The notes under the pieces: model-generated
Seen by the model: the letters and a program-made list of their open reading frames with translations, nothing else
Database searches by the model: none
Told to the model about the DNA's origin: nothing
Shown: positions 41,364-64,000 of the stretch, piece by piece
Position numbering within the stretch: position 1 is the first letter of the stretch
How the letters are laid out: each line of letters begins with the position of its first letter
Program-made: the position numbers and the translations under genes
Source: an uncultured delta proteobacterium
GTDB lineage: Bacteria > Myxococcota_A > Polyangia > Polyangiales > Polyangiaceae
Assembly: GCA_963841435.1 (NCBI GenBank)
Contig: CAWJCS010000003.1
Location: 1,487,365 to 1,551,364 of the forward strand
Direction: 5' to 3'
Length of the DNA: 64,000 nt

Positions 41364-41378
41364 CACGAATCTTGCTCC

Positions 41379-41478
41379 CTCCACTCGCACGTCACTCGCA
41401 CGTGCTCGCCTTCGGCTGCGCGCGCGCGGTCTCCTCCTTAATCATGCTCGCCTTCGGCTGCGCGTGATTGGAGGAGAC
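41379..41478. repeat. Conserved double-hairpin element, copy 1 (left edge of array)
   Basis: GTCTCCTCC-TT-AATCATGC...GCGTGATT-GGAGGAGAC; homologous copies at 43170, 51048, 55600, 61235. Confidence 0.85.
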
Positions 41479-41707
41479 GGGTCTTGCCGGTTGGGGGCAT
41501 CGAGTGAGACGGCGACGTCGGTGGCCGAGGGGCGTTGGCGTCGTGAGGCTCAACACATGCCGACAGTATCACGACGGTCGGCGCGGCGGATGGTGACTCG
41601 AGCACGCGCGTCGCGTCCGGCACGGGGCCCGGGCTTCGCGGGAACGCGCACGTCGCGCGCCGTGCTCCGGTCCTTCGCACAAACGGTGACGCGCCACGCA
41701 CGTCCAA

Positions 41708-41749
41708 CTGTCAATAGCCATTGACAGCGCCACTCGCGGAGCGTAACCT
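41708..41749 (+). promoter_or_regulatory. hicAB sigma70 promoter with overlapping palindromic operator
   Basis: TTGACA (41721-26), 17 bp, TAACCT (41744-49); inverted repeat CTGTCAAT-AGCC-ATTGACAG covers the -35. Confidence 0.8.
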
Positions 41750-41756
41750 GATGGCT

Positions 41757-41961
41757 GTGACGGCTCGGGAACTTCGACGCGTTCTCCCGCTCACACGGCT
41801 GCGTCGAGGTGCGTCAAGCCGGCTCTCATTTCCGAATCCGGTGTGGCAAATGCTTCACCACCGTGCCGGTCCACCAGGGTGAGGACATCGGCAGCGGCCT
41901 CTTGGCGAAGATCGAGCGAGACATGGAACCCTGTCTCGGGAAAGGATGGCTCAAACGATGA
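41757..41961 (+). CDS. hicA: HicA toxin; one extra C at ~41787
   Basis: Reconstructed MTARELRRVLRSHGCVEVRQAGSHFRIRCGKCFTTVPVHQGEDIGSGLLAKIERD (GSH motif); ATGA overlap with hicB. Confidence 0.85.
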
Positions 41962-42347
41962 AACCTCGGCAAACGTATTGTGTCGTCTACGAACGCGACG
42001 AAAGTGGCTTTTGGGTTGCGAGTGTCGCCGGCATCCGCGGCTGTCACACCCAGGGCAGGACGATCGAGCAGGCGCGCGAGCGCGCCCGGGAAGCGATTCA
42101 GGCAGCGCTCGATTTGCAGCGGCCCTACGCCGGCAAGCTCGTGGACGATGTGCGGCTACCGCCACCGATCAAGAAGGTCGTCGCCTCGGCCCTGCACGCT
42201 CGAGCCAAGGCAGCCGTTGCCGACCGCGCCGCATCCGAGGGCAGCCGTCAGGCGATCGCCGCGCTCACGCGCATCGGCCTGAGCCTACGCGACGCTGGTG
42301 AGCTCCTGGGCGTCTCGCGGCAACGAGCGCAGAAGCTCGCGAGCTGA
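41958..42347 (+). CDS. hicB: HicB antitoxin with C-terminal HTH
   Basis: ERDESGFWVASVAGIRGCHTQGRTIEQARERAREAI...LSLRDAGELLGVSRQRAQKL. Confidence 0.9.
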   Translation: MKPRQTYCVVYERDESGFWVASVAGIRGCHTQGRTIEQARERAREAIQAALDLQRPYAGKLVDDVRLPPPIKKVVASALHARAKAAVADRAASEGSRQAIAALTRIGLSLRDAGELLGVSRQRAQKLAS

Positions 42348-42368
42348 CCCCACCGACGCTGACGCCCG

Positions 42369-42399
42369 GTCTAACTTTCGGATCAGGCTGACGAGCTTC
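42369..42399 (+). other. Truncated attC site (R'' and L'' only)
   Basis: GTCTAAC-TTTCG-GATCAGGC-TGACGAGCTTC; right arm missing. Confidence 0.7.
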
Positions 42400-42494
42400 C
42401 CACTCCGACCTCCGCAACACCCGAAGTAGGGTATCATCGGCTGCAGCATTGTGCGGGTTGCGACCAGGCACCCGCGAGCGTATGATTTGTCGCG

Positions 42495-42719
42495 ATGGAC
42501 TGGCAGAGCAGAGTCGTGATCGACCCCGCAATCCGCGCAGGTAGGCCCTGCATCCGGGGGACGCGGATCACCGTCTACGACGTTCTGGAGTACCTAGCGG
42601 GTGGGATGACCGAAGCCGACTTGCTGCGCGATTTCCCGGATCTCACTCGGGACGACGTACGCGCCAGCCTCTCCTTCGCGGCGGCTCGGGAGCGCCGCCT
42701 TTCTAGTCCGGCCGCGTGA
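42495..42719 (+). CDS. DUF433 antitoxin
   Basis: IDPAIRAGRPCIRGTRITVYDVLEYLAGGM...DFPDLTRDDVRA; promoter TTGCGA-17-TATGAT 8 nt upstream of ATG. Confidence 0.92.
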   Translation: MDWQSRVVIDPAIRAGRPCIRGTRITVYDVLEYLAGGMTEADLLRDFPDLTRDDVRASLSFAAARERRLSSPAA

Positions 42720-43001
42720 AGCGGCCTGTATCCCGGCAGCGCTCACGTTTCAGCCGTCGGCCTTCGCGGCGCAACGGACGATGCGGTGTGGGATTTCGCT
42801 CGCGAGCATGGCTTCGCGATCGTGTCGAAGGACAATCACTTCCGGCAGCGTGGGTTCGTCGAGGGACCACCTCCGAAGATCGTCTGGCTGGACGTCGGAA
42901 ACGCTGGCACGGAAGAGATCACCAAGTTTGTCCGGGAACGCCGGCCAATGACGAGCAATGTGGGGGCGACTACAAGGAACCTAGCCGCCAGCCAAAACTG
43001 A
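42716..43001 (+). pseudogene. DUF5615 PIN-like toxin, internally deleted
   Basis: LYPGSAHVSAVGLRGATDDAVWDFAREHGFAIVSKDNHF...PPKIVWL is out of frame with the GTG start; first catalytic strand missing and C-terminus scrambled. Confidence 0.78.
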
Positions 43002-43012
43002 GCGCCCGACAT

Positions 43013-43169
43013 GCCGGGCGGGTAGTACTCGTAGTCCAGCATGCCCCCGGGGATCTGGACGGTGTCGAGGCGGCCGGCGCTGTCGGGCGTCCTGACGATC
43101 TGGACGCTGTCGGGGCGGGTTTGGGTGCGGAGCATGCGGTCGGGGTCGTAAGTGTAGCTCTCTTGATGC
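43013..43169 (-). pseudogene. Short Rhs core stub
   Basis: QESYTYDPDRMLRTQTRPDSVQIVRTPDSAGRLDTVQIPGGMLDYEYYPPG; same 5' point as the other Rhs fragments. Confidence 0.85.
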
Positions 43170-43264
43170 CTCCACTCGCACGTGCTCGCCCGCAGGGCGG
43201 GCTGCGCGCGCGCGGTCTCCTCCCGAATCATGCTCGCCTACGGCTGCGCGTGATTGGTGGAGAC
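43170..43264. repeat. Conserved double-hairpin element, copy 2
   Basis: Near-identical to 41379-41478. Confidence 0.85.
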
Positions 43265-43325
43265 GGGTCGTCGCGCGTTTGAGCCTCGAGGCGTTGTCCG
43301 TGAAGGGGTTGTAGTGACCGCTGAC

Positions 43326-43622
43326 TCAGCCGAGATCTGGGCCGCTCTTCCGCGATGCGCCCCAAACTGCGATGATCCGGACGACCTGCTCGTGCTCGAG
43401 CACAACGTAGTAGACGTGGCATTTCGTCTTCGGGAGCAGCACGCGCCGGACTGCTTCGCCCTCGAAGTGACCGTAGAGCTCGTGCTTCGGTCCTTCAGCA
43501 AGCATCGCCCGTGCGGCGCGGAGCTCCTCCGTGAAGAGCTGTTTTGCATCACGATGCGCGCGCCACCACTTTCGTTCCCTACGCGCCTGGTGCCGCGCCT
43601 CCTCGGCAAGCTCGACTTTCAC
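43326..43622 (-). CDS. RelE/ParE-superfamily toxin
   Basis: MKVELAEEA...VRRVLLPKTKCHVYY...VRIIAVWG; GTGA overlap with upstream antitoxin. Confidence 0.78.
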   Translation of the reverse strand: MKVELAEEARHQARRERKWWRAHRDAKQLFTEELRAARAMLAEGPKHELYGHFEGEAVRRVLLPKTKCHVYYVVLEHEQVVRIIAVWGASRKSGPDLG

Positions 43623-43846
43623 GGCTCGGCGTCGAGCTCGTTCAACACGTCGTCGAAGTTGGCGACTCGACCGGCACGTCCGTCCCGGATCCCCCGGGCA
43701 ATCGAAGCATGCAGCTCGCGCCTTTCCGCGTCGCTCATCCCGTCCTCACTAACCACGCAAACGTCGACTACCGTACCCTCGGGAAGGTCGGTAGGTGCGT
43801 CCAGCGTGAGACGCCCGTTCCGCACTGTCGCCTTCAGCACGTCCAT
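43619..43846 (-). CDS. Cognate antitoxin
   Basis: MDVLKATVRNGRLTLDAPTDLPEGTVV...ELHASIARGIRDGRAGRV; TATCAT -10 lies 6 nt before the ATG. Confidence 0.75.
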   Translation of the reverse strand: MDVLKATVRNGRLTLDAPTDLPEGTVVDVCVVSEDGMSDAERRELHASIARGIRDGRAGRVANFDDVLNELDAEP

Positions 43847-43898
43847 CCGTCCATGATACCACCGCTCTCGTGCAGGCGCTCGCTCGCCGCATCGGTGC

Positions 43899-44054
43899 GC
43901 CCTCGCCCCCGGGCTGGTCTCGGGCTCCGCAGGATCGCGCAACCGGCGCGCCGCGCTTCCGCTCGGCGCGTCCCCCTCGCTCTCCTCGCGCGTCACGCCG
44001 CTTGCGCCTTGGAAGGCTGCGCCCGAGCCCATCCCGGGCGCGAGGAGAACCTCC
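43899..44054 (+). repeat. Conserved ~155-nt structured leader of DUF559, copy 1
   Basis: Homologous to 51688-51842 and 62000-62154; outer stem encloses the AGGAG RBS. Confidence 0.8.
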
Positions 44055-44432
44055 ATGCTCAAGCCCAGCTTCACCGTCAGTCCCGCCCGCCAGCAGCTTC
44101 TCGCGGCCCGCGCTCATGACATGCGCGTCTTCGCCCCGGAGCCGGAGCACCGGCTCTGGCAGGAGCTTCGCGGTCAGCGGCTCGGCGTCGTGTTTAGCCG
44201 GCAGGTCGTGCTCGGGCGCCACGTCGCGGACTTCGCCGCGCCGTCGATTAGGCTCGTGGTGGAAGTGGATGGTCCCATTCATGCTCGGCACCGCTCGTAC
44301 GATGCGCGGCGGGACCGGGATCTCGGCCGGCTCGGCTACCACGTGCTTCGCATCCCGGCGGCGCTCGTCATGAAGGAGTTCGCGGCGGCCATGGCCATGG
44401 TGCGCCGCACGCTGAACGAGCGCCGCCGCTGA
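44055..44432 (+). CDS. DUF559 (Vsr-like PD-(D/E)xK) endonuclease
   Basis: PEHRLWQELRG...FSRQVVLGRHVADF...LVVEVDGPIH...DARRDRDLGRLGYHVLRI. Confidence 0.9.
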   Translation: MLKPSFTVSPARQQLLAARAHDMRVFAPEPEHRLWQELRGQRLGVVFSRQVVLGRHVADFAAPSIRLVVEVDGPIHARHRSYDARRDRDLGRLGYHVLRIPAALVMKEFAAAMAMVRRTLNERRR

Positions 44433-44438
44433 CGCGCG

Positions 44439-44496
44439 GTCCAACTTTCGCATCAAGCTGGCGAGGTTCGCTCGCAGCTTATCCGGGGCGTTGATC
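44439..44496 (+). other. Integron attC site
   Basis: GTCCAAC-TTTCG-CATCAAGC...GCTTATC-CGGGGC-GTTGATC; starts 6 nt after the DUF559 stop. Confidence 0.85.
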
Positions 44497-44713: not shown

Positions 44714-45035
44714 CAGTACGCTGGACCGAGCCCATTCGGGCGGTAGATGGCGCACGCCTTCTTACATTCGTACTCGTCGTGCGCACCGCTGTTTCGACCG
44801 TGACGGTTCGCCGCCTGGTCGGCGTTGCACGCGCTGGCCGGATCTCCCTTCAGATGCTCGTCCGTCCATTCCCGCGCGTCAGAAATCGCTTCGGCAACGT
44901 CTTCGCGTCCACGGGCCGCTGCCTCGCAATTCGCCTTGCAGTGGAAGTACTTGTCGGCGCCAATCGTGTTTGCGTCGCGCATGTCGTTGTAATTGTCACG
45001 GAAGGCGTCGACCGCATCTGGGTAGCTCGTGAGGC
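44713..45035 (-). pseudogene. Orphan toxin tip with serum-amyloid-A-like domain (Rhs core deleted)
   Basis: YNDMRDANTIGADKYFHCKANCEAAARG...AEAISDARE...ADQAANRHGR...YRPNGLGPAY; occupies the Rhs-CT slot. Confidence 0.8.
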
Positions 45036-45066
45036 GGTCAAGCTGATGCTTAAACGCTTAAACCGT

Positions 45067-45085: not shown

Positions 45086-45275
45086 GGGGCAAGTCTTCGG
45101 AACCCGGGCTCGGGACATGCGCGTCTATCCCTCCGAGCCTGAGCGCCGGCTCTGGCAAGAGCTCCGCGGCGCGCGGCTCGGGGTTGCGTTTCGCAGGCAG
45201 GTCGTCCTCGGAAACGTGTCCGTCCGCCGGACCGCACCCGGTGCGAGGGTTGACGCCGAGGTGTGGCCGGTCGGG

Positions 45276-46923
45276 CTATTCGGCGGCGGAAGGCGGCGCC
45301 GCCGCGCGCGCCACCTGCCACGGCGCCGGCAGCAAATCCCGGCAGATCCTTGAGACGCATACGGCGGGCGAGGCGCGGCAGCACGTCGGCGAGGTACTCG
45401 ACGGGGTCGATCTCGGCGAGCGCCGAGCAGCCGAGGATGGTGTAGGCGATCGCAGCTCGTTCGCCGCCGGCGTCGGAGCCGGCGAAGAGAAAGTTCTTGC
45501 GCGTGAGTGCCGCGCGGACGTGCAGGCGTTCGACGACGCCGTTGTCGATGGGGATCACACCGTCTTCGAGAAACCGACCGAGCGCGACGTGGTGGTTTTG
45601 GAGGTAGCGGATCGCCGTGCCCATCGGCGAGCTCGGTGGTTCGTGCGGTTCGTGGACGTTCGCCCAGGCGACGAGCTCGTCGAAGACCGGCTTGCTCCGT
45701 GCCTGCCGCTCGACGAGCCGGGCCTCCGGCGTCGCGTCCTTCGTCCCCGCCTCGATTTCGTAAAGCTTCTTGTACGCGGCGATCGGCAGCGCCGCGCGCT
45801 TGTCACCGCCGTCGAGCGCCTCGAAGAAGTAGCGGCGAGCGTGCATGTTGCAGCCGCACTCGATGAGCGTCTCGCGCTTGAAGCTCGCATCGAAAACGCC
45901 GGCCGCGTCGGCCACCGTGTAGCCGTTTCGGAGCTTGAGCACGTCTTCCGGCCCAAGCTCACCCTTTTTCTGCCCCGTCTTTTTGCCGGTCGAGGCGTAG
46001 AGGTAGAGCGCCGTCTCTTGGTCGCCCACGTAACCCCAGAGCGTTCCGAGCTTCTTGCCGCCAGGCGCGTCCCGATCGAGCACTGGCAGGCTCGTGCCGT
46101 CCAGGTGCATCACGACCGACATCAAGACGTTCGCGATGGCCGCGCGCCAGAGCGGTCGGAGCAAGTCCGTCGCCCACGTCACCTGGTCGGCGAGCGTCGA
46201 GACGCTGATGTCGAGCCCCATTCTCTCGAAACGCTGCCTCTGACGGTGCAGCGGCAGGCCATCCCAATACTTGTCCACCAAGAGCTGGGCGACGAGTCTC
46301 GCGCCGAGCTTGCCGCCCGAGACGACCTTGTCGCCCGGCGGTGCTCGCACGAGCTCGCCCTCGCACCGCTTGCACGCAAGCTTCTCGCGAGCGTCGCGCC
46401 GCACCACGACCTCTGCCGGGATGAGCTCGATGACTTCCGTCACGTCGTGGCCGATGCACTCCCGCTCGGCTCCGCAGACCGGGCAGGGTCGCTCGGCGTC
46501 GGGCACGCGGAGCAGGTTCTCGATACGTCGCAGCTCCGGCGGCGGCGCCTTCCGCAGCGGCGGCTGCTTCTTGGGCTCCTTCGTTTCCTTCGTCTCCGGG
46601 TCCTCCTTTGCCCCGTCGTCGATGCCGGCAGCACTGCGGAGCCTTCGGTTCGCTTCGTCCCGCTCCTCGTCCGTCCCGCTCTCGCTCTCCGCCGCCGTAG
46701 CGAGTGCGTCGAGAAACAACAGCAGCTGCGCCTTCGGCACGCTCTCGTTCTTCTTGCGGCGCGACGCGATCTCGGCAAGCCGCTGCTCGAGCTCGCTATT
46801 GCGCGCCACGAGCTTCTCCACCACCGCGAGCACCTCGTCGTTGCGTCCCTCGGAGAGCAGCTCCTTGAGCACGTCGAGCACCGCCCCTCGTCGCTCGCTA
46901 GTGCTCTTCGACGCTCCGGCCAC
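45276..46923 (-). CDS. tnpC: IS66 transposase TnpC; extra C near 3' end
   Basis: Zn-ribbon CPVCG/CKRC, LPLHRQ, HLDGT, CNMHARRYF, IDNGVVER. Confidence 0.93.
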
Positions 46924-46995
46924 CCACGCTTTCTATTTCATCGCGATCGCCAGTGCCAAGCACAATCGCAGGGTGTCACGTGGGATCACGTAGCG

Positions 46996-47376
46996 TCACC
47001 CGGACGCAGATGCCCGAGCGTGCAGCGGCGGCTCCCAGCGCTTCTGCGCGTGCACCACCCGGGCGTCGATGCCCTCGAGCAGCATCGAGAGCTCGTGCAC
47101 GTCGAGCTCCACGCTCTTCGCCTCGCTCGTCATCCTCTTCGCAAACGTGAAACGCCCCTGCTCGAGCCGCTTGTGCACAATCGTGAAGCCGCCGCGAGTC
47201 CACAACAAAAGCTTCACCATCGTGCGCCGTCGGTTCAGAAACACGAAGACGTGCCCGCTCAGCGGGTCGCGCCGCAGCACCTCGCGCACCTCGTTCGACA
47301 AGCCGTCGAATGACTTCCTCAAGTTCACCGGCTCCGTCCCCACGTATACGCGCACCGCGCGCGGCAGAAGCAACAC
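46996..47376 (-). CDS. tnpB: IS66 accessory protein TnpB
   Basis: PVNLRKSFDGL...DPLSGHVFVFLNRRR..KLLLW..GGF..HKRLEQGRF. Confidence 0.95.
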   Translation of the reverse strand: MLLLPRAVRVYVGTEPVNLRKSFDGLSNEVREVLRRDPLSGHVFVFLNRRRTMVKLLLWTRGGFTIVHKRLEQGRFTFAKRMTSEAKSVELDVHELSMLLEGIDARVVHAQKRWEPPLHARASASG

Positions 47377-47380
47377 GGGC

Positions 47381-47716
47381 CTACTGCCTCACCAGCTCGC
47401 CCACGAGCGCCACCACCCACGACGGCGGCACCCGCCCTGGATCCAGCTCGACCGCCACCCCACCCGGCAGACGCACCACGACCGGGTGCTCGGCCCTGGC
47501 GCCAGACTCAATCCGCACCACGGCCGGAACGAGACGCGAGATCGCGCCGTCGACCGACTTTCGTCCGCGCTTCGTCCCCGCTCCGAGCCGACGCTGCCAG
47601 AAATGCAGCCGCTGCGGGTCGATGCCGTGCTCACGTCCGTACGACCGAGCCGATTTCCCGCTCGCCCGCCATCGCGACAAAATCTCTCCTGCCTCGTCCG
47701 CCGTCCAGCGTGCCAT
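47381..47716 (-). CDS. tnpA: IS66 TnpA-like HTH protein
   Basis: WRASGKSARSYGREHGI...LHFWQRRL; first IS66 ORF. Confidence 0.85.
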   Translation of the reverse strand: MARWTADEAGEILSRWRASGKSARSYGREHGIDPQRLHFWQRRLGAGTKRGRKSVDGAISRLVPAVVRIESGARAEHPVVVRLPGGVAVELDPGRVPPSWVVALVGELVRQ

Positions 47717-48051
47717 CGCCGCCGAGTCTGCCGCGCCCAGCCCCGCGCAGGGGCGCCGTCAGAGGGTGCGCTCGGGCGGACGGACACTCGGAAACCGCTA
47801 CGTCGCGGACTTCGCCGCGCCGGCGGTCAAGCTCGTAGTCGAGGCGGACGGCGCGGTGTCGCATGTCGGCGGCGCGCCGCGGAGCCGCGGACGCGCGGCG
47901 CGATCGAGATCTCGGTCGGCTCGGCTACCGGGTCCTCCGTATTCCAGCGGCGCTCGTCATGAAAGACTTCGCAGCAGCCGTCGCCATGGTGCGCCGCGCG
48001 CTGAGCGGGTGCCGACGCTGACGCGCTCCGCGGGGGCGCCGCTCGGATGTC

Positions 48052-48804
48052 TCATCTCCTGCTGCCCTGTTCTTGCATGAAGTCTCGTGCCAACTGAAAC
48101 GCCTCCGTTTCCTCGTACTCAACTCGAGATATTCCGACGGTGTCAAGCCGGTATATTGTGGCTCCCGGGAGCGCCAGCAGGATTGGCGAATGAGTGGCGA
48201 CGATGACTTGCGAGCCTTTGCTCTCTACGTGCGTCCGCAATTCGCCAAGGAGTTCTATTTGGCGCCGGACGGAAAGACCAGCTTCCGGCTCGTCGAGGAT
48301 ATACAGCCCATTCGGGCCAAAGCGATGTCTGACGAGCGTCATGAGGGACTCGCCATGAGACATTTCATGGAGCGACCTGCCGCCATAAGAGTCCAACACT
48401 GGAGGTCCGAGAACCGGTTCGCTGTCAAGGTCCTCAATGTTCGTGGCCACGTTGAAGAAACTCTCTGCTCTAAGAAAAAAACCGGTCCGCGGCCTACGGT
48501 CCGTGCGAGCAAGTCGGATGCACCGGTAGAGTTCCGACTCCGAAGCGCGAGTGGAGAATCGGAAATTCGTCGTCCCTCCTTCTGCGTTGAATCCGGATGC
48601 CAGTGCTATCGCCTCCACGATCGTCGATTTTCCGCTGCCGTTCTCCCCCACGAAGTAAGTCGCACTGGGGTTGAGTAACAAGCGTTTTTTAAGCGCGTCA
48701 ACGGCGGGAATCGAGTAGGGATATCCCTTCAACTCCGCGACCTTCTCCGCGATGAGTTGAACAGACTGAACGTAGGGTGCGCTACCGAAGGCGTTGGAAC
48801 GCAT
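48052..48804 (-). CDS. Predicted AAA/ABC-type ATPase (COG3910-like)
   Basis: YPYSIPA, GENGSGKST, FFLRAESF, SHGES, YILDEPE, VATHSP; lower GC. Confidence 0.88.
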   Translation of the reverse strand: MRSNAFGSAPYVQSVQLIAEKVAELKGYPYSIPAVDALKKRLLLNPSATYFVGENGSGKSTIVEAIALASGFNAEGGTTNFRFSTRASESELYRCIRLARTDRRPRTGFFLRAESFFNVATNIEDLDSEPVLGPPVLDSYGGRSLHEMSHGESLMTLVRHRFGPNGLYILDEPEAGLSVRRQIELLGELRTHVESKGSQVIVATHSPILLALPGATIYRLDTVGISRVEYEETEAFQLARDFMQEQGSRR

Positions 48805-48818
48805 CGGCGCGAACCATA

Positions 48819-49253
48819 TCAACCACCGCCCTGACTCGTCAGAGCGGCAGGTTCGAGATGCCTGAATCTGTGCCAAAGCGGTCTAAGCAGGTCCGCGTAC
48901 AAGAGTCCGATGGCCTCGCGGACTTCGGATGCCGCATCAGACTGTGCCTCTTTTTCGCGTACGGACCGAAAGAGCTCCGTCAGAGCCGTGGATGCTTCGA
49001 CCAACTCCCGCGAGATCGACGCAGCACTCGATTCTGACAGCTGCTCCACAAGGTCTTGCCATGGCTCTGCGTCCTCGAGAACACGAGGTTGCGCCGCGCG
49101 GCCTCCTAATGCGTCAAGAGCCCGACCAACGGCGAACTCCGTGTCCCGGAGGGCAGACCAGAAGCAGTTCGCTCCATCCCCACCCAACATGGCAGCAACC
49201 CTCGCAAGGGCGCTGTCGAAGGCCTCGATGGACGAACGTTGGGCAGTGATCAT
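48819..49253 (-). CDS. Putative Rhs immunity protein
   Basis: Directly after the toxin stop; helical, ends LLRPLWHRFRHLEP. Confidence 0.65.
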   Translation of the reverse strand: MITAQRSSIEAFDSALARVAAMLGGDGANCFWSALRDTEFAVGRALDALGGRAAQPRVLEDAEPWQDLVEQLSESSAASISRELVEASTALTELFRSVREKEAQSDAASEVREAIGLLYADLLRPLWHRFRHLEPAALTSQGGG

Positions 49254-56401: not shown

Positions 56402-58048
56402 CTATTCGGCGGCGGAAGGCGGCGCCGCCGCGCGCGCCACCTGCCACGGCGCCGGCAGCAAATCCGGCAGATCCTTGAGACGCATACGGCGGGCGAGGCG
56501 CGGCAGCACGTCGGCGAGGTACTCGACGGGGTCGATCTCGGCGAGCGCCGAGCAGCCGAGGATGGTGTAGGCGATCGCAGCTCGTTCGCCGCCGGCGTCG
56601 GAGCCGGCGAAGAGAAAGTTCTTGCGCGTGAGTGCCGCGCGGACGTGCAGGCGTTCGACGACGCCGTTGTCGATGGGGATCACACCGTCTTCGAGAAACC
56701 GACCGAGCGCGACGTGGTGGTTTTGGAGGTAGCGGATCGCCGTGCCCATCGGCGAGCTCGGTGGTTCGTGCGGTTCGTGGACGTTCGCCCAGGCGACGAG
56801 CTCGTCGAAGACCGGCTTGCTCCGTGCCTGCCGCTCGACGAGCCGGGCCTCCGGCGTCGCGTCCTTCGTCCCCGCCTCGATTTCGTAAAGCTTCTTGTAC
56901 GCGGCGATCGGCAGCGCCGCGCGCTTGTCACCGCCGTCGAGCGCCTCGAAGAAGTAGCGGCGAGCGTGCATGTTGCAGCCGCACTCGATGAGCGTCTCGC
57001 GCTTGAAGCTCGCATCGAAAACGCCGGCCGCGTCGGCCACCGTGTAGCCGTTTCGGAGCTTGAGCACGTCTTCCGGCCCAAGCTCACCCTTTTTCTGCCC
57101 CGTCTTTTTGCCGGTCGAGGCGTAGAGGTAGAGCGCCGTCTCTTGGTCGCCCACGTAACCCCAGAGCGTTCCGAGCTTCTTGCCGCCAGGCGCGTCCCGA
57201 TCGAGCACTGGCAGGCTCGTGCCGTCCAGGTGCATCACGACCGACATCAAGACGTTCGCGATGGCCGCGCGCCAGAGCGGTCGGAGCAAGTCCGTCGCCC
57301 ACGTCACCTGGTCGGCGAGCGTCGAGACGCTGATGTCGAGCCCCATTCTCTCGAAACGCTGCCTCTGACGGTGCAGCGGCAGGCCATCCCAATACTTGTC
57401 CACCAAGAGCTGGGCGACGAGTCTCGCGCCGAGCTTGCCGCCCGAGACGACCTTGTCGCCCGGCGGTGCTCGCACGAGCTCGCCCTCGCACCGCTTGCAC
57501 GCAAGCTTCTCGCGAGCGTCGCGCCGCACCACGACCTCTGCCGGGATGAGCTCGATGACTTCCGTCACGTCGTGGCCGATGCACTCCCGCTCGGCTCCGC
57601 AGACCGGGCAGGGTCGCTCGGCGTCGGGCACGCGGAGCAGGTTCTCGATACGTCGCAGCTCCGGCGGCGGCGCCTTCCGCAGCGGCGGCTGCTTCTTGGG
57701 CTCCTTCGTTTCCTTCGTCTCCGGGTCCTCCTTTGCCCCGTCGTCGATGCCGGCAGCACTGCGGAGCCTTCGGTTCGCTTCGTCCCGCTCCTCGTCCGTC
57801 CCGCTCTCGCTCTCCGCCGCCGTAGCGAGTGCGTCGAGAAACAACAGCAGCTGCGCCTTCGGCACGCTCTCGTTCTTCTTGCGGCGCGACGCGATCTCGG
57901 CAAGCCGCTGCTCGAGCTCGCTATTGCGCGCCACGAGCTTCTCCACCACCGCGAGCACCTCGTCGTTGCGTCCCTCGGAGAGCAGCTCCTTGAGCACGTC
58001 GAGCACCGCCCCTCGTCGCTCGCTAGTGCTCTTCGACGCTCCGGCCAC
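56402..58048 (-). CDS. tnpC: IS66 transposase TnpC (intact, 548 aa)
   Basis: As copy 1. Confidence 0.95.
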   Translation of the reverse strand: MAGASKSTSERRGAVLDVLKELLSEGRNDEVLAVVEKLVARNSELEQRLAEIASRRKKNESVPKAQLLLFLDALATAAESESGTDEERDEANRRLRSAAGIDDGAKEDPETKETKEPKKQPPLRKAPPPELRRIENLLRVPDAERPCPVCGAERECIGHDVTEVIELIPAEVVVRRDAREKLACKRCEGELVRAPPGDKVVSGGKLGARLVAQLLVDKYWDGLPLHRQRQRFERMGLDISVSTLADQVTWATDLLRPLWRAAIANVLMSVVMHLDGTSLPVLDRDAPGGKKLGTLWGYVGDQETALYLYASTGKKTGQKKGELGPEDVLKLRNGYTVADAAGVFDASFKRETLIECGCNMHARRYFFEALDGGDKRAALPIAAYKKLYEIEAGTKDATPEARLVERQARSKPVFDELVAWANVHEPHEPPSSPMGTAIRYLQNHHVALGRFLEDGVIPIDNGVVERLHVRAALTRKNFLFAGSDAGGERAAIAYTILGCSALAEIDPVEYLADVLPRLARRMRLKDLPDLLPAPWQVARAAAPPSAAE

Positions 58049-58120
58049 CCACGCTTTCTATTTCATCGCGATCGCCAGTGCCAAGCACAATCGCAGGGTG
58101 TCACGTGGGATCACGTAGCG

Positions 58121-58501
58121 TCACCCGGACGCAGATGCCCGAGCGTGCAGCGGCGGCTCCCAGCGCTTCTGCGCGTGCACCACCCGGGCGTCGATGCCCT
58201 CGAGCAGCATCGAGAGCTCGTGCACGTCGAGCTCCACGCTCTTCGCCTCGCTCGTCATCCTCTTCGCAAACGTGAAACGCCCCTGCTCGAGCCGCTTGTG
58301 CACAATCGTGAAGCCGCCGCGAGTCCACAACAAAAGCTTCACCATCGTGCGCCGTCGGTTCAGAAACACGAAGACGTGCCCGCTCAGCGGGTCGCGCCGC
58401 AGCACCTCGCGCACCTCGTTCGACAAGCCGTCGAATGACTTCCTCAAGTTCACCGGCTCCGTCCCCACGTATACGCGCACCGCGCGCGGCAGAAGCAACA
58501 C
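58121..58501 (-). CDS. tnpB: IS66 accessory protein TnpB
   Basis: Identical protein to copy 1. Confidence 0.95.
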   Translation of the reverse strand: MLLLPRAVRVYVGTEPVNLRKSFDGLSNEVREVLRRDPLSGHVFVFLNRRRTMVKLLLWTRGGFTIVHKRLEQGRFTFAKRMTSEAKSVELDVHELSMLLEGIDARVVHAQKRWEPPLHARASASG

Positions 58502-58505
58502 GGGC

Positions 58506-58841
58506 CTACTGCCTCACCAGCTCGCCCACGAGCGCCACCACCCACGACGGCGGCACCCGCCCTGGATCCAGCTCGACCGCCACCCCACCCGGCAGACGCA
58601 CCACGACCGGGTGCTCGGCCCTGGCGCCAGACTCGATCCGCACCACGGCCGGAACGAGACGCGAGATCGCGCCGTCAACCGACTTTCGTCCGCGCTTCGT
58701 CCCCGCTCCGAGCCGACGCTGCCAGAAATGCAGCCGCTGCGGGTCGATGCCGTGCTCACGTCCGTACGACCGAGCCGATTTCCCGCTCGCCCGCCATCGC
58801 GACAAAATCTCTCCTGCCTCGTCCGCCGTCCAGCGTGCCAT
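58506..58841 (-). CDS. tnpA: IS66 TnpA-like protein
   Basis: Identical protein to copy 1. Confidence 0.85.
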   Translation of the reverse strand: MARWTADEAGEILSRWRASGKSARSYGREHGIDPQRLHFWQRRLGAGTKRGRKSVDGAISRLVPAVVRIESGARAEHPVVVRLPGGVAVELDPGRVPPSWVVALVGELVRQ

Positions 58842-59030
58842 CGCCGCCGAGTCTGCCGCGCCCAGCCCCGCGCAGGGGCGCCGTCAGAGGGTGCGCTCGG
58901 GCGGACGGACACGAGCCAAGATCCACGGTCGTCGCCATCGTGCATGCGAGCATGAGTCCAACCTACTGGATCGACCGGCTCGATGAGACCAAGTAGCGCC
59001 GCCCTCGACGGGCTCCGACGCTGACGCCCG

Positions 59031-59092
59031 GTCCAACTGTCGCTTGCAGCGGACGGGCGCGGACGCCCGCAGCTGAAGCGGGGGCGTTGGTC
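59031..59092 (+). other. Integron attC site (divergent sequence, same fold)
   Basis: GTCCAAC-TGT-CGCTT(G)CAGCGG(A)CGGGCG-CGGA-CGCCCGCAGCTGAAGCG-GGGGC-GTTGGTC. Confidence 0.88.
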
Positions 59093-59480
59093 AATCCGCC
59101 GACGGATAAATGCTCAGAGCCAGGTCAATCCCGCAATGACTCAAGACCCCTAGCAGTTGTGGTGAGAGCCGAAGTGTCCGACTTCCCAAGCCCTTGGCAT
59201 CCACCATCACCGCAATATCAAGTTCGGCGGCGGCCCCAGCCGCGACGATCTGGCGAAGATGCTCCGCAATGGAACCAAGATTCCTGGTTGCCTCTTCGAC
59301 AAGTTGGTTCGCTCCGCTGGTTTCAGCGACCAACAGGTTGAAGCCTGGTTCCTTGGGCACTGGTCCATGCCTTCGGGGTTCGCCAGCTCGCCACTGCCGG
59401 AGCAGGCGGTCGCGTGGAAGCCACGGCATCTGATCGGCTTCAATAGAAGGCCCTTGGATCCTCAGAACGGCGGTTAGCAA
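59091..59480 (-). CDS. Putative immunity protein (DUF4279-like)
   Basis: WRAGEPRR...GFNLLV...ELDIAV...LSHCGIDLALSIY; stop codon overlaps attC R'. Confidence 0.7.
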   Translation of the reverse strand: MLTAVLRIQGPSIEADQMPWLPRDRLLRQWRAGEPRRHGPVPKEPGFNLLVAETSGANQLVEEATRNLGSIAEHLRQIVAAGAAAELDIAVMVDAKGLGSRTLRLSPQLLGVLSHCGIDLALSIYPSAD

Positions 59481-59496
59481 GACTTACGTAGCCCCC

Positions 59497-61233
59497 TTAG
59501 ATGCACTGATTTTGTTCGGGGACGCAATAATCGGGAAGCACGGAACACGGGTCGAGAAGGAATGGGAAGGGAATGATCCAGTCCAGATCGTCCCAGTCGT
59601 CTCCGCCTCGGTCACGCGTGTTATCGGGACCTGGTTCTCCCTCATCCTTCCATTGCTCATGCAAGTCTCTCGCCTCTTCGTGGGTGAGGTCTGCGTCGCC
59701 GGGTTGCTTGATGTTCCGATGATACCAATTCCAAAACTTTTTGGCCAATCCAAAGAGCTTGTCCTTGGGCGACAGGCCATCTTGGTCGGCCCTGTTGATG
59801 GGATCGTTGGCAGCATATGCGTAAAGATCAATGCCACCCGCGAAGAGGATTGCGTCTTTCGCCGTCCACCTACTCGTGAAAGCGTCGTAGTCCCTTGCCC
59901 CGAACCTCGTCAGCCCGGAGTCTACGTCGTAGCCACCACCGGCAAACCCGAACGGCATCCAATCAAGGCCGGTCCCAGTGAGTTCTCCGAAGCTCGAGTA
60001 GTCCGCCCGGTAGGGAACGTCAGCCGAGTTGGTCACGTTCACCACGTAGCGCGGTGATCCAAGTTGGTCGGAGACCACCCGATAAATCGCACCGCCTCGC
60101 GACACATAGTCGGGCGCATTGCGCTTCGCCCCGTACGCAAACTGCGCCACCAGGTTCCCGCTCCCATCGAGCTCCGCCACCGGCTTGAGCGCATCCCGGT
60201 ACACCCACTGCTTCAACAGCACCCCATTCTTCTTCTTCCCGACCCTGCGGCCCATCCCGTCGACGAGGTACTCCACCAAATCCCCATTCGGCAGCCCCAC
60301 GCTCAGCAAATTCCCGAGCGCATCGTACCCGAACATCCACTCCTCCCCCGTGGACGTATCCGTCTTCGTCTCCATCTCCCCATTTGCCGTGTACGTAAAC
60401 ACCCACGGCCCGTAGCTCAGCAACCGGTCCTGGTCGTCGTACGACCCCGTCCAAGTCCCGCGCCCCGCCTTGTACCCCGCCGTCCTGTTCCCGTTCTGGT
60501 CGTAGTCGAAGTGCTCGTCGAGCACGCCGTTGATCGTCACGTCCGTGAGGCGCCGGAGCGCGTCGTACGTGTACTGGTGGACCTTCGTGACCCCGTTGAT
60601 CACCTCCGTCTTCTGGGTGATCCGCCCGAGCTTGTCCCGCTCGAAGCCGGCTTCGTCGTAGGTGAAGTCGGCGAGCGGCGTCGCCGAGTACTGAGCCGTC
60701 TGCTGCGCGAGCTCGCCGAAGGTGTTGTAGCTCAGCGTCTCCGTCGTGTTGCCCAGGGCGATCCCTGTGATGAGCCCATTCTGCGCGCTCCGCGTGAGCC
60801 GGAGCGCGCTCGTCGCGGACGTGCCTGCGCAGCTCACCGGCGAAGCGCACGTGAGCAATTGGTCAGCATCGTACCCGAACACCGTCTGCGCCGTGCCGCT
60901 CGCCCCCGTGACGGTCTCGAGGATTTTCTGGAAGTCGTTGTTGTACTGCCACGCGACGGAGCCCGTGACGTTGCCGCTCCACGTCGTCTGCGTCGTGAGC
61001 ATGCCGTCGTACGTGAAGTGGAGATTCGTGCCGTACGGGCCCAGGATGTCGCTCGTCTTGCCCGCCCCGCTCGGGGTGCCGGGCGGGTAGTACTCGTAGT
61101 CCAGCATGCCGCCGGGGATTTGGACGGTGTCGAGACGTCCGGCGCTGTCGGGCGTGCGGACGATTCCGACGCCGTCGGGGCGGGTTTCGGTGCGGAGCAT
61201 GCGGTCGGGGTCGTAAGTGTAGCTCTCTTGATG
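59497..61233 (-). CDS. rhs: Orphan Rhs core + toxin tip
   Basis: YD repeats; DPINRADQDGL then SPKDKLFGLAKKFWNWYHR...; first ATG at 61200. Confidence 0.92.
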   Translation of the reverse strand, partial: HQESYTYDPDRMLRTETRPDGVGIVRTPDSAGRLDTVQIPGGMLDYEYYPPGTPSGAGKTSDILGPYGTNLHFTYDGMLTTQTTWSGNVTGSVAWQYNNDFQKILETVTGASGTAQTVFGYDADQLLTCASPVSCAGTSATSALRLTRSAQNGLITGIALGNTTETLSYNTFGELAQQTAQYSATPLADFTYDEAGFERDKLGRITQKTEVINGVTKVHQYTYDALRRLTDVTINGVLDEHFDYDQNGNRTAGYKAGRGTWTGSYDDQDRLLSYGPWVFTYTANGEMETKTDTSTGEEWMFGYDALGNLLSVGLPNGDLVEYLVDGMGRRVGKKKNGVLLKQWVYRDALKPVAELDGSGNLVAQFAYGAKRNAPDYVSRGGAIYRVVSDQLGSPRYVVNVTNSADVPYRADYSSFGELTGTGLDWMPFGFAGGGYDVDSGLTRFGARDYDAFTSRWTAKDAILFAGGIDLYAYAANDPINRADQDGLSPKDKLFGLAKKFWNWYHRNIKQPGDADLTHEEARDLHEQWKDEGEPGPDNTRDRGGDDWDDLDWIIPFPFLLDPCSVLPDYCVPEQNQCI

Positions 61234-61234
61234 C

Positions 61235-61317
61235 CCACGCCCCGTCCGTCCTCGCACCTGCGGTGCTGCGGGCGGCCGACCCCTCCCTTACCCGGGCTTT
61301 GCCCGGATGGGAGGGGT
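61235..61317. repeat. Conserved double-hairpin element, copy 5
   Basis: Near-identical to 51048-51130. Confidence 0.85.
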
Positions 61318-61356
61318 GGTTATGGCGAGCTGGAAGGGTCGGGCGGGGGCGGGTAG

Positions 61357-61671
61357 TCAGGCCGCATCCCGGAGCCATTCGAGGATGGCCTCGCGCAGGG
61401 CTGCGTGCAGGCTGAGGCCCCTGCGGCGCGCACGGGTCTCGAGCTTCTTCCAGATGGCCGGAGGGAACCGCACCGACCGCGGCTCCGTGCCACCGACCTC
61501 CTGAAGTCGCTTGGGCCGCCCCCGTCCGACCTGCACCACGATGCCCTCGCGTGCGATGCGTTTGGCGTACGGGTTACGGCGAACGCGCCCCTTGGAGAAG
61601 TCCACCTCGGGGATCTCCTCGAGCGAAGCCTTCGACGGCTCGCGGTGCCTATGCTTGCTTGCCTTCTTCAT
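61357..61671 (-). CDS. BrnA-like antitoxin with C-terminal RHH
   Basis: MKKASK...EIPEVDFSKGRVRRNPYA...RGRPK...RSVRFP..IWKKL; overlaps the brnT end. Confidence 0.8.
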   Translation of the reverse strand: MKKASKHRHREPSKASLEEIPEVDFSKGRVRRNPYAKRIAREGIVVQVGRGRPKRLQEVGGTEPRSVRFPPAIWKKLETRARRRGLSLHAALREAILEWLRDAA

Positions 61672-61924
61672 ACCGTCTCCTCTCTGTACGGGTTGCGAGG
61701 CGGGCGCTGATGATGCGCAGCTCGTCCGGGCTGCGCTCCGCAAAAACAACGACCAAGAGCCTTCCTCCAGCAGACTCGCCGAGGATCAGGGCCCGCTCCG
61801 CGTGCACTCGGTCGTTGACCACTTCAGCCAAGGCGTCGGCGAACACCGTCGCCGCCTCGGAAAACGTCACGCCGTGCTTGCTCTCATTCGAACGAGCCTT
61901 GCGGGGGTCCCAGCTGAACCGCAC
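61649..61924 (-). CDS. brnT: BrnT ribonuclease toxin
   Basis: MRFSWDPRKARSNESKHGVTFSEAATVF...RIISARLATRTERRRYE. Confidence 0.95.
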   Translation of the reverse strand: MRFSWDPRKARSNESKHGVTFSEAATVFADALAEVVNDRVHAERALILGESAGGRLLVVVFAERSPDELRIISARLATRTERRRYEEGKQA

Positions 61925-61929
61925 CTGAT

Positions 61930-61960
61930 AAGTGTATTACACTTGCAAAGGCAACGGCAA
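61930..61960 (-). promoter_or_regulatory. brnTA promoter and palindromic operator
   Basis: Perfect IR AAGTGTA-T-TACACTT (61930-44) covers -10 TACACT, 6 nt before the GTG; TTGCCG 18 bp upstream. Confidence 0.75.
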
Positions 61961-61999
61961 GGACGCCCTCGCGAGCCGCCGAGACGCTTGCGCAACCTG

Positions 62000-62154
62000 G
62001 CCCTCGCGCCCGGGCTGGTCTCGGGCTCCGCAGGATCGCGCAACCGGCGCGCCGCGCTTCTGCTCAGCACGGCGCCTCCTCGCTCCTCGCGCGTCACGCC
62101 GCTTGCGCCGGTGAGGCTGCGCCCGAGCCCATCCCGGGCGCGAGGAGAACCTCC
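62000..62154 (+). repeat. Conserved structured DUF559 leader, copy 3
   Basis: CCTCGCGCCCGGG...CCCGGGCGCGAGG outer stem. Confidence 0.8.
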
Positions 62155-62535
62155 ATGCTCAAGCCTCACCTCACCGTCAGCCCTTCCCGCCAGCAGCTAC
62201 TCGCGGCCCGCGCGCATGACATGCGCGTTTACGCCTCGGAGCCGGAGCGCCGGCTCTGGCAAGCGCTTCGCGGCGGGCGGCTCGGCATCGTGTTCCGCCG
62301 GCAGGTCGTGCTCGGGCAGCGTTACGTCGCGGACTTCGCAGCGCCGGCGGTCAAGCTCGTCGTGGAGGTGGACGGCGCCACTCATGCTCGGCGCCAGCGC
62401 GCTGATGAGCGCAGGGACAGGGACCTCGGGCGGCTCGGGTACCGCGTGCTCCGCGTCCCGGCGTCGCTCGTCATGAAGGACATCGCGGCGGTGGTCGCTC
62501 TGGTGCGGAGCGCGCTGGACGAGCTCCGACGCTGA
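62155..62535 (+). CDS. DUF559 endonuclease
   Basis: Near-identical to 51843..52220. Confidence 0.9.
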   Translation: MLKPHLTVSPSRQQLLAARAHDMRVYASEPERRLWQALRGGRLGIVFRRQVVLGQRYVADFAAPAVKLVVEVDGATHARRQRADERRDRDLGRLGYRVLRVPASLVMKDIAAVVALVRSALDELRR

Positions 62536-62541
62536 CGCGCG

Positions 62542-62600
62542 GTCCAACTGTCGGATCAAGCTGGCGAGCTTTGCTCGCAGCTTATCCGGGGGCGTTGGAT
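62542..62600 (+). other. Integron attC site
   Basis: GTCCAAC-TGTCG-GATCAAGC...GCTTATC-CGGGGGC-GTTGGAT. Confidence 0.9.
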
Positions 62601-62623
62601 GACCTCGTTGCACGTGGCGCTGG

Positions 62624-63436
62624 TCACATGGATGGTGCCGGCACCGCACTTGCGTCACAGGCTCGGGCCGCAACCATGTGAACTGCTGCCGCGAGGCGAG
62701 TGTCGCCGTACTGTTCGCAGACGCGCGACAACTCACCGTACACCCCGGCTGGGGCTTGCAGAGACTCGAAAATTCGAAGGAGCTTTTGTGCATCGTCGCC
62801 CCGGCGCGCACGAGCCATCGCCGTGAACAGCAGCAATGCCTGCTGTAAGATTGCCTTTCGATCACCGGATACAATCGCGCTCTGCTCCGACAAGCGCCCG
62901 GCCAACTCGTCAAAATATTTTGGCGCGTGCACCGAGTCAAACAGCTGGTCCGCGGGTAACGCCCCGAACAACGTCGCCCTAACCTGTGGATGCACGGCGG
63001 ACTGGTTCAATAGTTCAAAACCGCGCTCGGTTGCGCCTAGTCTTTCATTTAGGTGCGCGTACAGCAGCACGTCTGGCCCTCCCATATTCTCCCCTGCGAG
63101 TATGCGGTGTTCGAGCGTCAACCTACTACGCTTCAAGTATTCGATGGCGTCCGGATAGACCTTGCCCAGCACCTGGATCTTGTCCAAGAGATACGTGTTA
63201 CGCACTCCCTCGAAACCGGGCTCGAGTGGCTCTGACCCCATCAAGGCGTGGCTATATGCTTCGAGCGCGTCCTTGCAGGCGCCGCGGCGGGTATAGCCCT
63301 CTCCTCGGTTCATGTACGCTTCGCGGCCTGTCTGCGCCGGCGCGACATGGGCCGGCCGGGGCACCTGGTGACCGCAAGCCGAAGCGCACATCGCCAGCGC
63401 CGCAGGCAACCTTACGAAAAGCCTCCAACAAGTCAC
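62624..63436 (-). CDS. Putative immunity lipoprotein with TPR-like repeat
   Basis: GTG 63436 overlaps the toxin TGA; lipobox ASAC; AYMNRGEGY...DALEAYSHAL. Confidence 0.65.
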   Translation of the reverse strand: MTCWRLFVRLPAALAMCASACGHQVPRPAHVAPAQTGREAYMNRGEGYTRRGACKDALEAYSHALMGSEPLEPGFEGVRNTYLLDKIQVLGKVYPDAIEYLKRSRLTLEHRILAGENMGGPDVLLYAHLNERLGATERGFELLNQSAVHPQVRATLFGALPADQLFDSVHAPKYFDELAGRLSEQSAIVSGDRKAILQQALLLFTAMARARRGDDAQKLLRIFESLQAPAGVYGELSRVCEQYGDTRLAAAVHMVAARACDASAVPAPSM

Positions 63437-64000
63437 TTGCACGGCCCTTCTTCGCAATACTGGATTCGCGCATCCCTACTGATTTTGCAGTCTCTCAGGC
63501 ATAACCAATACTCGTCTGGCTCATTGCTGCATTCCGCTGGGCGGCCGATATACCTGTCCCGACATCCACGAAAGCATTTGCTTCGCTGGCGTCGGCAAGC
63601 GCTCTGCATTCGATGCATTGTTGCCCGTTAGGCTCTTTGCCCGAATCGTCACTTAGATTGACGGGATCGTCTCCCGCGTACTTGAGAAGATTCGCCTCCC
63701 GGGCGTCAAAACGAATCGGATCCTTACTTGTCCATCGACCGATCGGCGGATCGTAATCCCTTGCACCAAACCGAACGAGCCCCGTGTCCCCATCATAGAT
63801 CCCCCCCGCAAACCCAAACGGCATCCAATCAAGCCCCGTCCCCGTCACCTCGCCAAAGCTCGTGTAATCCGCCCGGTACGGCACGTCCGCGGAGTCCGCA
63901 ACGTTCACCACGTACCGCGGCGACCCCAGATGATCGCTCAGCACGCGATACGTCGCCCCCCCACGCACCACGTAATTCGGCACGTTGCTCTTAGACCCGT
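63433..64000 (-). CDS. rhs: 3' end of another Rhs protein with Cys-rich toxin tip; probable 1-nt deletion ~63578
   Basis: SDHLGSPR...PFGFAGGIYD...DPVNLSDDSGK. The Cys-rich frame KCFRGCRDRY...YCEEGPCK* ends in a GTGA overlap with the immunity gene. Confidence 0.88.

Follow-up and report, generated by a model that had tools for sequence, protein, structure and literature searches.

An array of Rhs orphan modules interleaved with integron attC sites and toxin-antitoxin genes in a Polyangiaceae genome

The window analyzed here is a 64,000-nt stretch (contig C3, positions 1487365-1551364; GC 68.6%) of the genome of an uncultured delta proteobacterium of the Polyangiaceae (G000; 7.78 Mb in 6 contigs). 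From 41.4 to 64 kb its minus strand carries Rhs/YD orphan modules in direct array; each module joins a core stub of 1.4 kb to a variable tip, behind which lies a downstream gene. Read on the plus strand, the modules are separated by a double-hairpin repeat, a toxin-antitoxin (TA) gene set, a palindromic leader with a gene for a DUF559 nuclease of the Vsr-like PD-(D/E)XK type, and an integron attC site. We put at about even chances the reading that this orphan array, belonging to a polymorphic-toxin locus of the teneurin-like Rhs/YD kind, became fused with integron cassette material and is now decaying. Past joining of the IntI type is likely, and present activity of that type in G000 is unlikely. 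As the attC-bearing form comes from one genome, with a defective-looking integrase and a defective-looking main rhs gene, the array is presented as a lead and not as a demonstrated mechanism.

attC Sites of the Array and Their Joints

For a covariance model of attC, 15 sites were taken from the array linked to intI in the same genome (contigs C5/C1) and R-box pairs were added to their RNAalifold consensus; the whole window was searched with it on both strands with filters off (E ≤ 10). The four full sites, each of them on the plus strand, came out at the top of the 71 matches: 52227-52284 (E 1.3e-8), 59031-59093 (1.7e-8), 62542-62600 (7.3e-8) and 44439-44495 (7e-4), at 23.6-41.1 bits; the fifth was a partial match with E 0.027. 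R'' reads GTCCAAC at all four, and R' reads GTTGGAT at 52227-52284 and 62542-62600, GTTGGTC at 59031-59093 and GTTGATC at 44439-44495, the last being one base off the consensus (R'' RYYYAAC, R' GTTRRRY) in the consulted part of Nivina et al. (PMC5027507). The folds place an unpaired G and an unpaired T, 6 bp apart, in the minus-strand R''/L'' arm, in agreement with the extrahelical bottom-strand bases named there as attC features. Of the cells of the four sites 94% are paired; four pairs are changed on both sides, all in site 59031-59093. The folds fit an attC hairpin, with extrahelical bases in a single arm, a central spacer left unpaired, a variable terminal loop and more conservation of structure than of sequence. 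On the strength of the model matches, boxes, unpaired bases and compensatory pairing, we accept the four sites as attC, as a preliminary description of this DNA had proposed, and assign them to the genome's resident integron type. Their top strand is the plus strand; DUF559 is therefore the sense open reading frame (ORF) of each site, and the hairpin starts 6-8 nt past its stop codon. Two other identities were rejected: that the hairpins are mere terminators of DUF559 is ruled out by how they score against the intI-linked model, together with their R boxes and unpaired bases, and neither the leader palindrome nor the hairpin repeat gave a significant match to the model as a degenerate attC.

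At all four sites the homology of the DUF559-attC block breaks off within R', at GTTG(G)(A)(T), and the sequences that lie beyond are unrelated in all four cases. Homologous recombination is unable to create new joints at one fixed base, and IntI-type recombination at G|TT is able to do so; the R'-bounded joints are what site-specific joining predicts. In addition, site 59031-59093 is divergent and yet keeps its pairing, R boxes and unpaired bases, which suggests selection on it as an attC.

These joints bear on two opposed explanations. The preliminary description had proposed an active toxin-switching system, in which IntI excises 3.5-kb attC-to-attC circles, one homologous crossover through the 1.4-kb core installs a new tip on a full-length rhs, the old tip is pushed downstream and TA pairs guard each unit; we regard this as unlikely in spite of genuine attC sites that share one orientation and belong to the resident type. 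It also seems improbable to us that this is an ordinary Rhs orphan array shaped only by homologous recombination and unequal crossing-over, in which a DUF559 integron cassette happened to lie in one ancestral module and was copied along, and IntI never acted. Such a history leaves unexplained how four different sequences came to be joined at the same few bases of R', and why site 59031-59093 keeps its attC features despite divergence.

Sites 59031-59093 and 62542-62600 are co-oriented and 3.4 kb apart with no intI nearby, as in an attC cluster without an integron integrase (CALIN); the other gaps between attC sites, of 6.7 and 7.7 kb, contain IS elements. The unit itself does not have the size of a gene cassette, measuring 3508 bp with five genes, of which DUF559 alone is in sense direction; cassettes are small and usually pair a single promoterless sense ORF with one attC. 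The block of leader, DUF559 and attC alone (~600 bp) would be cassette-sized, but no cassette start (TTRRRY) precedes the leader.

Organization of the Array

Stop-to-stop ORFs of at least 75 codons between 41 and 64 kb (180 of 182 ORFs) were scanned against Pfam, and repeats were mapped by repeat search and BLAST. The features are listed below from left to right, with coordinates in the window and strand.

40704-41441 (−): chromosomal DUF2238 gene (Pfam E 1.6e-52), bordering the left end of the array
41414..41576 (+): left array end, repetitive extragenic palindromic (REP)-like double hairpin of type B and D18 repeat (repeats D17/D18; fold z −3.7)
41883-42344 (+): solo HicB-like/helix-turn-helix gene (Pfam HicB_lk_antitox E 5e-5, below cut-off)
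~42367-42398 (+): half attC (R''+L''), preceded by ~30 nt of DUF559 3' tail (repeat D14, sequence)
42486..42998 (+): DUF433/DUF5615 pair, predicted TA (Pfam E 3e-24 and 7e-19)
43012..43170 (−): Rhs core stub reduced to a remnant, with no more than the initial 159 nt of core (93% identical to 61077-61235)
43200..43290 (+): REP-like double hairpin of type B (86% identical to 41414-41504; fold)
43329..43860 (−): TA slot with ParE-like toxin gene and small antitoxin-like ORF upstream (ParE_toxin E 2.6e-4, below cut-off; translation)
43899..44495 (+): palindromic leader, DUF559 (44055-44432; Pfam E 5e-23) and attC (44439-44495), together 85.5% identical to 62000-62597
44716..45057 (−): serum-amyloid-A-like gene (Pfam SAA E 1.6e-26)
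45097..48026 (+): DUF559 copy truncated at its 5' end and interrupted by IS66 (45216-47787, target duplication TCGGAAAC)
48055..49245 (−): variable slot of module 4, with AAA_21 ATPase gene (48055-48882; Pfam E 9e-16; AbiEii/OLD-like) and candidate immunity ORF of ~140 amino acids (48822-49245)
49262..51040 (−): Rhs stub 4, 1.4-kb core and tip 4 in an intact ORF of 613 codons from stop to stop (Pfam TEN_YD-shell, RHS_repeat; alignment)
51041..51158 (+): REP-like double hairpin of type A (90% identical to 61243-61345; fold z −4.1)
51233..51657 (+): HicB/HicA TA pair (Pfam E 1e-7 and 1e-15)
51688..52284 (+): leader, DUF559 (51840-52220) and attC (52227-52284), together 92% identical to 62000-62600
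52316..55590 (−): module 3, with 88-codon ORF (52316-52579), tip 3 and core end (52558-53029), IS4-like element (53030-54334) and remaining core (54335-55590) (Pfam, alignment)
55593..55830 (+): REP-like double hairpin of type B and D18 repeat (88% identical to G041:C38)
55865..58995 (+): Unstab_antitox gene (55865-56110) and ParE gene split by IS66 (~56342-58912, target duplication GAGCCAAG) (Pfam)
58996..59093 (+): 31-nt DUF559 3' tail, then attC (59031-59093)
59094..61225 (−): module 2, intact, with candidate immunity ORF (59094-59483), tip 2 (59500-59772) and 1.4-kb core stub to 61225
61226..61345 (+): REP-like double hairpin of type A, whose outer end TCTTGATGCCCAC touches the Rhs core (fold; genus-wide matches)
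61360..61936 (−): BrnT/BrnA (ribbon-helix-helix) TA pair (Pfam E 2.5e-23 and 5e-5)
62000..62600 (+): leader (62002-62145; 144 nt, palindromic by fold), DUF559 (62155-62535; Pfam E 1e-24) and attC (62542-62600)
62601..64000 (−): module 1, with 283-codon ORF (62627-63475), tip 1 and core end (63498-64000), cut by the end of C3

All elements that the preliminary description had named were found where it had placed them, by Pfam, repeats and sequence inspection, and the distance of 3508 bp between the attC G residues of its undisturbed unit (59087-62594) is as it had given. The toxin/immunity and TA slots also differ from copy to copy as claimed, with unrelated tips, downstream ORFs and TA sets. 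A module repeated at least five times is borne out as an array, but 59094-62600 alone is fully intact; the remaining modules are split by IS elements, frameshifted, reduced to remnants or cut at position 64000, the exact end of the contig. The scaffold parts, said to be near-identical, are in fact 83-92% identical between copies, as common descent would predict, which fits the explanation by homologous recombination alone.

Degradation rises leftward: module 2 is intact, modules 3 and 4 are hit by IS elements, and remnants occupy 41.4-45 kb, where 41883..42398 is the most degraded module of the array. The DUF433/DUF5615 pair there occupies the position expected of a tip and its immunity gene, and the neighboring stub remnant reaches 99% identity with stub 4 within a single alignment window of 100 columns. 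The core of module 3 has a 1-nt insertion relative to stub 2. No attC lies behind the DUF559 3' tail at ~47997-48026, and the module with the tail at 58996..59093 has no DUF559 gene. The serum-amyloid-A-like gene sits by itself between an attC and the truncated DUF559 copy, an odd cargo for a bacterial cassette. To the left of the array, at 1-41 kb of the window, ORFs of up to 1222 codons are intact.

Toxin-Antitoxin Slots, DUF559 and Boundary Repeats

Six gene sets, unrelated to one another, fill the TA slots: a solo HicB-like gene, DUF433/DUF5615, a ParE-like gene with antitoxin, HicB/HicA, Unstab_antitox/ParE, and BrnT/BrnA. Family scores were 82.6 bits for BrnT (with RHH_1), 57.9 for HicA and 32.6 for HicB, 85 for DUF433 and 68 for DUF5615, and 48.6 for Unstab_antitox, whose ParE partner is below cut-off and split by the IS; the ParE-like gene, at 21.9 bits, is also below cut-off. 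As adjacent small genes of known families, the pairs are predicted type II TA systems. In three of three copies the TA slot joins the leader at the same base.

DUF559 is 125 codons long, and its three intact copies are 74-90% identical in protein. D60, E71, D73 and H77, which we take to be the catalytic positions of the DUF559 fold, are invariant among them. Outside the array, DUF559 genes look cassette-like: a paralog at C3:9116-9415 is followed by a longer attC at C3:8970-9093 (E 6e-4), and in G002:C386 the DNA directly downstream of intI carries a REP-like element, a leader and DUF559 (G handles other than G000 denote related genomes, and L handles loci cut from genomes). At the other end of C3 (C3:2728-4620 and 2995-3579), a leader and DUF559 follow an IS66 copy beside an ORF with a DUF4329 domain, a domain that we presume to be frequent on Rhs-type proteins; this unit may represent another such module.

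The invariance of D60, E71, D73 and H77 also fits a different origin, in which the antisense DUF559 with its leader and hairpin provides a mobility or recombination-stimulating function and the attC sites and TA pairs are later additions. DUF559 would then act like a free-standing homing or switching nuclease, provoking gene conversion between rhs and the silent stubs. DUF559 lies antisense between Rhs orphan modules in three species (G000, G001 and G007), units of REP-like element, leader and DUF559 recur in G041:C38, G006:C353, G021:C74, G056:C722 and G002:C386, and a Caulobacter DUF559 protein is presented, in an excerpt of PMC12907096, as a Vsr-like endonuclease that triggers SOS. We nevertheless judge this origin highly improbable: neither a cleavage site nor a pair of empty and filled sites was found, most DUF559 copies of the genus are not beside Rhs matches, module 3 has no DUF559 gene, and the linkage is equally explained by co-inheritance of a whole ancestral module.

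The double-hairpin repeat has five copies in the array, which fall into two sequence types with a common fold. It is ~95 nt long, has the form TGATGCCCAC...CCCCTCCC-stem-GGGAGGGG and is found genus-wide at ~80-92% identity, above that of the coding parts. Its outer end (TGATGCCCAC...) is the 5' end of the stubs, and the repeat meets the Rhs core at residue 1 of the stub query in G000 and at residue 177 in G007. Two inverted copies in G051:C11 flank an IS5-like transposase between housekeeping genes. Given the genus-wide occurrence, the variable junction with the core and the IS5-like flanking, the stub boundary may be a relic of a mobile-element end, and the repeat may be an IS end, a miniature inverted-repeat transposable element (MITE) or a REP-like element. 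A fixed stub 5' end had been taken as a sign of circle integration. All stubs of G000 do start at the same core position, and such an end beside TA and DUF559 is the structure expected from a single crossover with a circle, but the boundary coincides with the end of a genus-wide repeat and has nothing integron-specific. An Rfam scan of 41000-64000 (E ≤ 0.1) gave no matches, so that the leader and hairpins do not belong to known RNA families.

Three IS insertions interrupt the array. The IS66 copies at 45216-47787 and ~56342-58912 have 8-bp target duplications, split one DUF559 and one ParE gene, and have 2,449 consecutive identical bases in common. Three further IS66 copies occur in the genome, with an identity that rounds to 100%, and contig C3 starts with one of them; the element is recently active, and it breaks the assembly. 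The 1.3-kb IS4-like element at 53030-54334, which splits stub 3, is 99% identical to C5:1840044-1841342, inside the main integron.

Rhs Stubs, Tips and a Candidate Main rhs Gene

ORFs with RHS_repeat/TEN_YD-shell domains were detected at 49262-51100, 54289-55829, 52558-53043, 59500-61287 and 63498-63998. The stubs align up to a DP.N...GL stretch, beyond which unrelated tips of 50-110 residues follow. A YD core fragment, a conserved C-terminal motif, a variable tip and a small downstream gene thus give each module the anatomy of an orphan module. The tips and downstream ORFs are mutually unrelated, with 54-60% GC, and no tip or presumed-immunity ORF of the window has a Pfam family. A stretch of a 1361-amino-acid RHS protein matches tip 2 with 45% identity across 93% of the tip. 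No relative shares the tips of the window at the DNA level; from the variable slots, the AAA_21 gene of slot 4 alone has a match (72% identical DNA, G048:C539, 466-1018), on a contig with an Rhs match at 2027-3328.

The cores are mosaic, with identity from 79% to 97% per 100-column alignment window, a pattern that would also arise in an array shaped by homologous recombination only. In orphan rhs-CT/immunity arrays, tips are replaceable by such recombination. A full-length rhs had been expected to the right of the window, and a teneurin-like one with a matching core was found 0.9 kb from the end of contig C1, with Dicty_CTDC repeats, TTR, NHL and YD shell; over its last 1.4 kb it shares 86.5% identity with stub 2. 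The presence of this gene accords with the proposed tip switching, but it is frameshifted and the join between C3 and C1 is not assembled. It aligns to an intact 3058-amino-acid congener protein in seven successive frame segments, which points to decay, and differs from stub 2 by four 1-nt indels and one 4-nt deletion. Stub protein matches (E ≤ 1e-20) were present in 26 of 47 genomes of the genus.

The Resident Integron and Its Integrase

The genome contains a single IntI (TIGR02249; C1:7944-8927), which reaches 311 bits against a cut-off of 265 only as two pieces; no other integrase in the genome scored above the cut-off. Compared with the integrases of G023 and G007, it has a 67-residue in-frame internal deletion (model positions 151-216), which removes the VR.GKG..DR stretch, retained in both aligned congeners, and the next segment. 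We take both the catalytic lysine and the integron-specific insertion to lie there. The resident integron thus has its array without an intact IntI. The array consists of ~20 attC-like hairpin sites spaced 0.45-4 kb apart at the start of C1 and the end of C5, beside IntI.

IntI is co-oriented with its cassettes and upstream of them, since on C1/C5 the minus strand serves as attC top strand, an 'inverted' arrangement. The resident array (C5:1830086-1845321 and C1:1114-7063) has small ORFs, mostly without a Pfam family, and is broken by several IS110-family transposase genes and by the copy of the IS4-like element of stub 3. The preliminary description had recommended a search for intI in the genome; across the genus the gene is common, being above the TIGR02249 cut-off in 20 of 47 genomes.

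Related Genomes and the Origin of the Array

In the reading that we favor, segments of tip and downstream gene would once have been joined to the DUF559-attC block by IntI-type recombination, either in this lineage or in its gene pool. Modules would have been added at the rhs-proximal (right) side, so that older modules decay leftward, and the 1.4-kb direct repeats would exchange by homologous recombination. The interleaved TA pairs could penalize module loss through recombination between these repeats, and the system in G000 would by now be inert or decaying. Anatomy, attC identity and type, the homology break in R', mosaic cores, IS insertions and the IntI deletion were observed directly, and decay is indicated by this deletion, the seven frame segments of rhs and the three IS insertions.

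Several observations weigh against this reading, the first of them against a working cassette switch in particular. The unit measures 3.5 kb, and the largest known gene cassettes are put at ~2 kb in the part of Cury et al. (2016, PMC4889954) drawn on here. The attC-bearing form was seen in one genome. A 20-base pattern spanning the junction of the DUF559 stop and R'' matched without mismatch in G000 only (5 sites) among 401 genomes of the order; 13 other genomes matched with 2-3 mismatches, about the same as the reversed-pattern control. Two metagenome-contig matches to the pattern were set aside as chance, showing no other homology with the window. The adjacency of the array to the C1 rhs is inferred across the unassembled break between C3 and C1, and the frameshifts of that gene could be assembly or polishing errors in repeated DNA. 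Toxicity of the tips and protection by the downstream ORFs, none of which has a Pfam family, are presumed. Finally, in G001:C9 and G007:C14 a stub, tip, downstream gene, antisense DUF559 and the next stub occur in the same order, with no recognizable attC after DUF559 and no room for a TA pair. It follows that attC is not needed for the architecture and that homologous recombination alone can maintain such arrays; attC may be a passenger.

As to the proposed comparison of module order, the linkage of stub and DUF559 holds in both of these congeners, and neither attC nor TA pair accompanies it. The attC model, run on nine loci of relatives (130 kb), gave best E values of 1e-4 and 1.6e-3, both in G001:C9 and beside ParE, not DUF559; on 43 loci (182 kb) it gave five matches with E ≤ 0.1, all in loci of G000 itself. 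In locus L080 (G001:C9; 827-6599), genes for a DnaG-like primase and a tyrosine recombinase lie ~2 kb upstream of the stub/DUF559/stub array and are followed by a ParE gene between two weak attC-model matches, and the whole resembles an integrative element. DUF559 DNA matches were found in 23 of 41 relatives. A scan of genome contigs with the DUF559 alignment yielded 26 loci with distant DUF559 genes (37-54% identity, mostly sphingomonads), none of them informative, and two public soil-metagenome runs contain 0.07 and 0.05 of the sampled words, as contigs only. Neither a circle nor another excision product nor a polymorphism of the array was observed.

For the toxin-switching interpretation, part of the premises stand: real attC sites, intI in the lineage, an rhs with matching core and joints in R'. 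TA cassettes are moreover known to police cassette excision, as stated in an excerpt of PMC13108822. However, the sole IntI is short of 67 residues including the GKG..DR stretch, the candidate main rhs is frameshifted, the units exceed the known cassette size and two congeners have the same module order without attC. The defective IntI and the attC-free congener arrays are likewise what a history of homologous recombination alone would have led us to expect, and the R' joints are what such a history lacks. A bolder form of our favored reading, in which the Rhs tip modules are true integron cassettes, IntI moves the 3.5-kb units between attC arrays and genomes of this genus, and homologous recombination through the 1.4-kb core of each unit installs the tips on the full-length gene, appears doubtful. 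Integrons would then be libraries of polymorphic-toxin tips, and the array a fossil in a strain whose integrase was later deleted.

Comparison With Known Systems

As generally understood, enterobacterial Rhs/CdiA orphan arrays are direct arrays of 5'-truncated cores, each with its own tip and downstream gene, with low-GC tips, homology to the full-length gene that permits tip replacement, and more degraded older modules, and the array described here is alike in all these respects. It differs in that every stub starts at the same core position, that an antisense DUF559, a TA pair, a double hairpin and, in G000, an attC lie between modules, and that the parent gene is teneurin-like.

Like the CALIN described in the consulted portion of Cury et al. 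(2016, PMC4889954), the array has two or more attC sites in one orientation, separated by under 4 kb, with intI elsewhere in the genome, and each attC is directly behind a sense ORF (DUF559). Its units, in contrast, span 3.5 kb and comprise five genes, of which four are antisense or self-promoted, and their content is an Rhs stub, a tip and a downstream gene. Varied TA families are spread regularly through an attC array also in sedentary chromosomal integrons (Richard et al., 2024, PMC13108822, in part), where TA cassettes can penalize excision or deletion, and the TA pairs here could do the same; unlike those cassettes, they have no attC of their own and occupy a fixed slot between hairpin and DUF559 leader. 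The sequential displacement of effector/immunity genes of the Vibrio cholerae type VI secretion system (T6SS; PMC5361080) has in common the idea that incoming modules push older immunity genes downstream, but that is a T6SS effector system.

The preliminary description had not known this combination to be described, and our literature search agrees: no paper joining Rhs modules with attC was found in full texts (supplementary files excluded), and among the DUF559 titles listed none links DUF559 to Rhs. Integron cassette arrays and polymorphic-toxin orphan arrays are textbook gene stockpiles that have been treated as separate, the former built by site-specific and the latter by homologous recombination. 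Here the two are interleaved, with joints that are precise at the attC crossover box. If IntI did move these units, cassettes would exceed the size and content known for them, a new route between genomes would open for toxin tips, and the TA pair in each unit would have a rationale. A conservative reading still leaves three leads: the linkage of stub and DUF559 in three species, a genus-wide double-hairpin repeat at the stub boundary and a precisely bounded TA slot.

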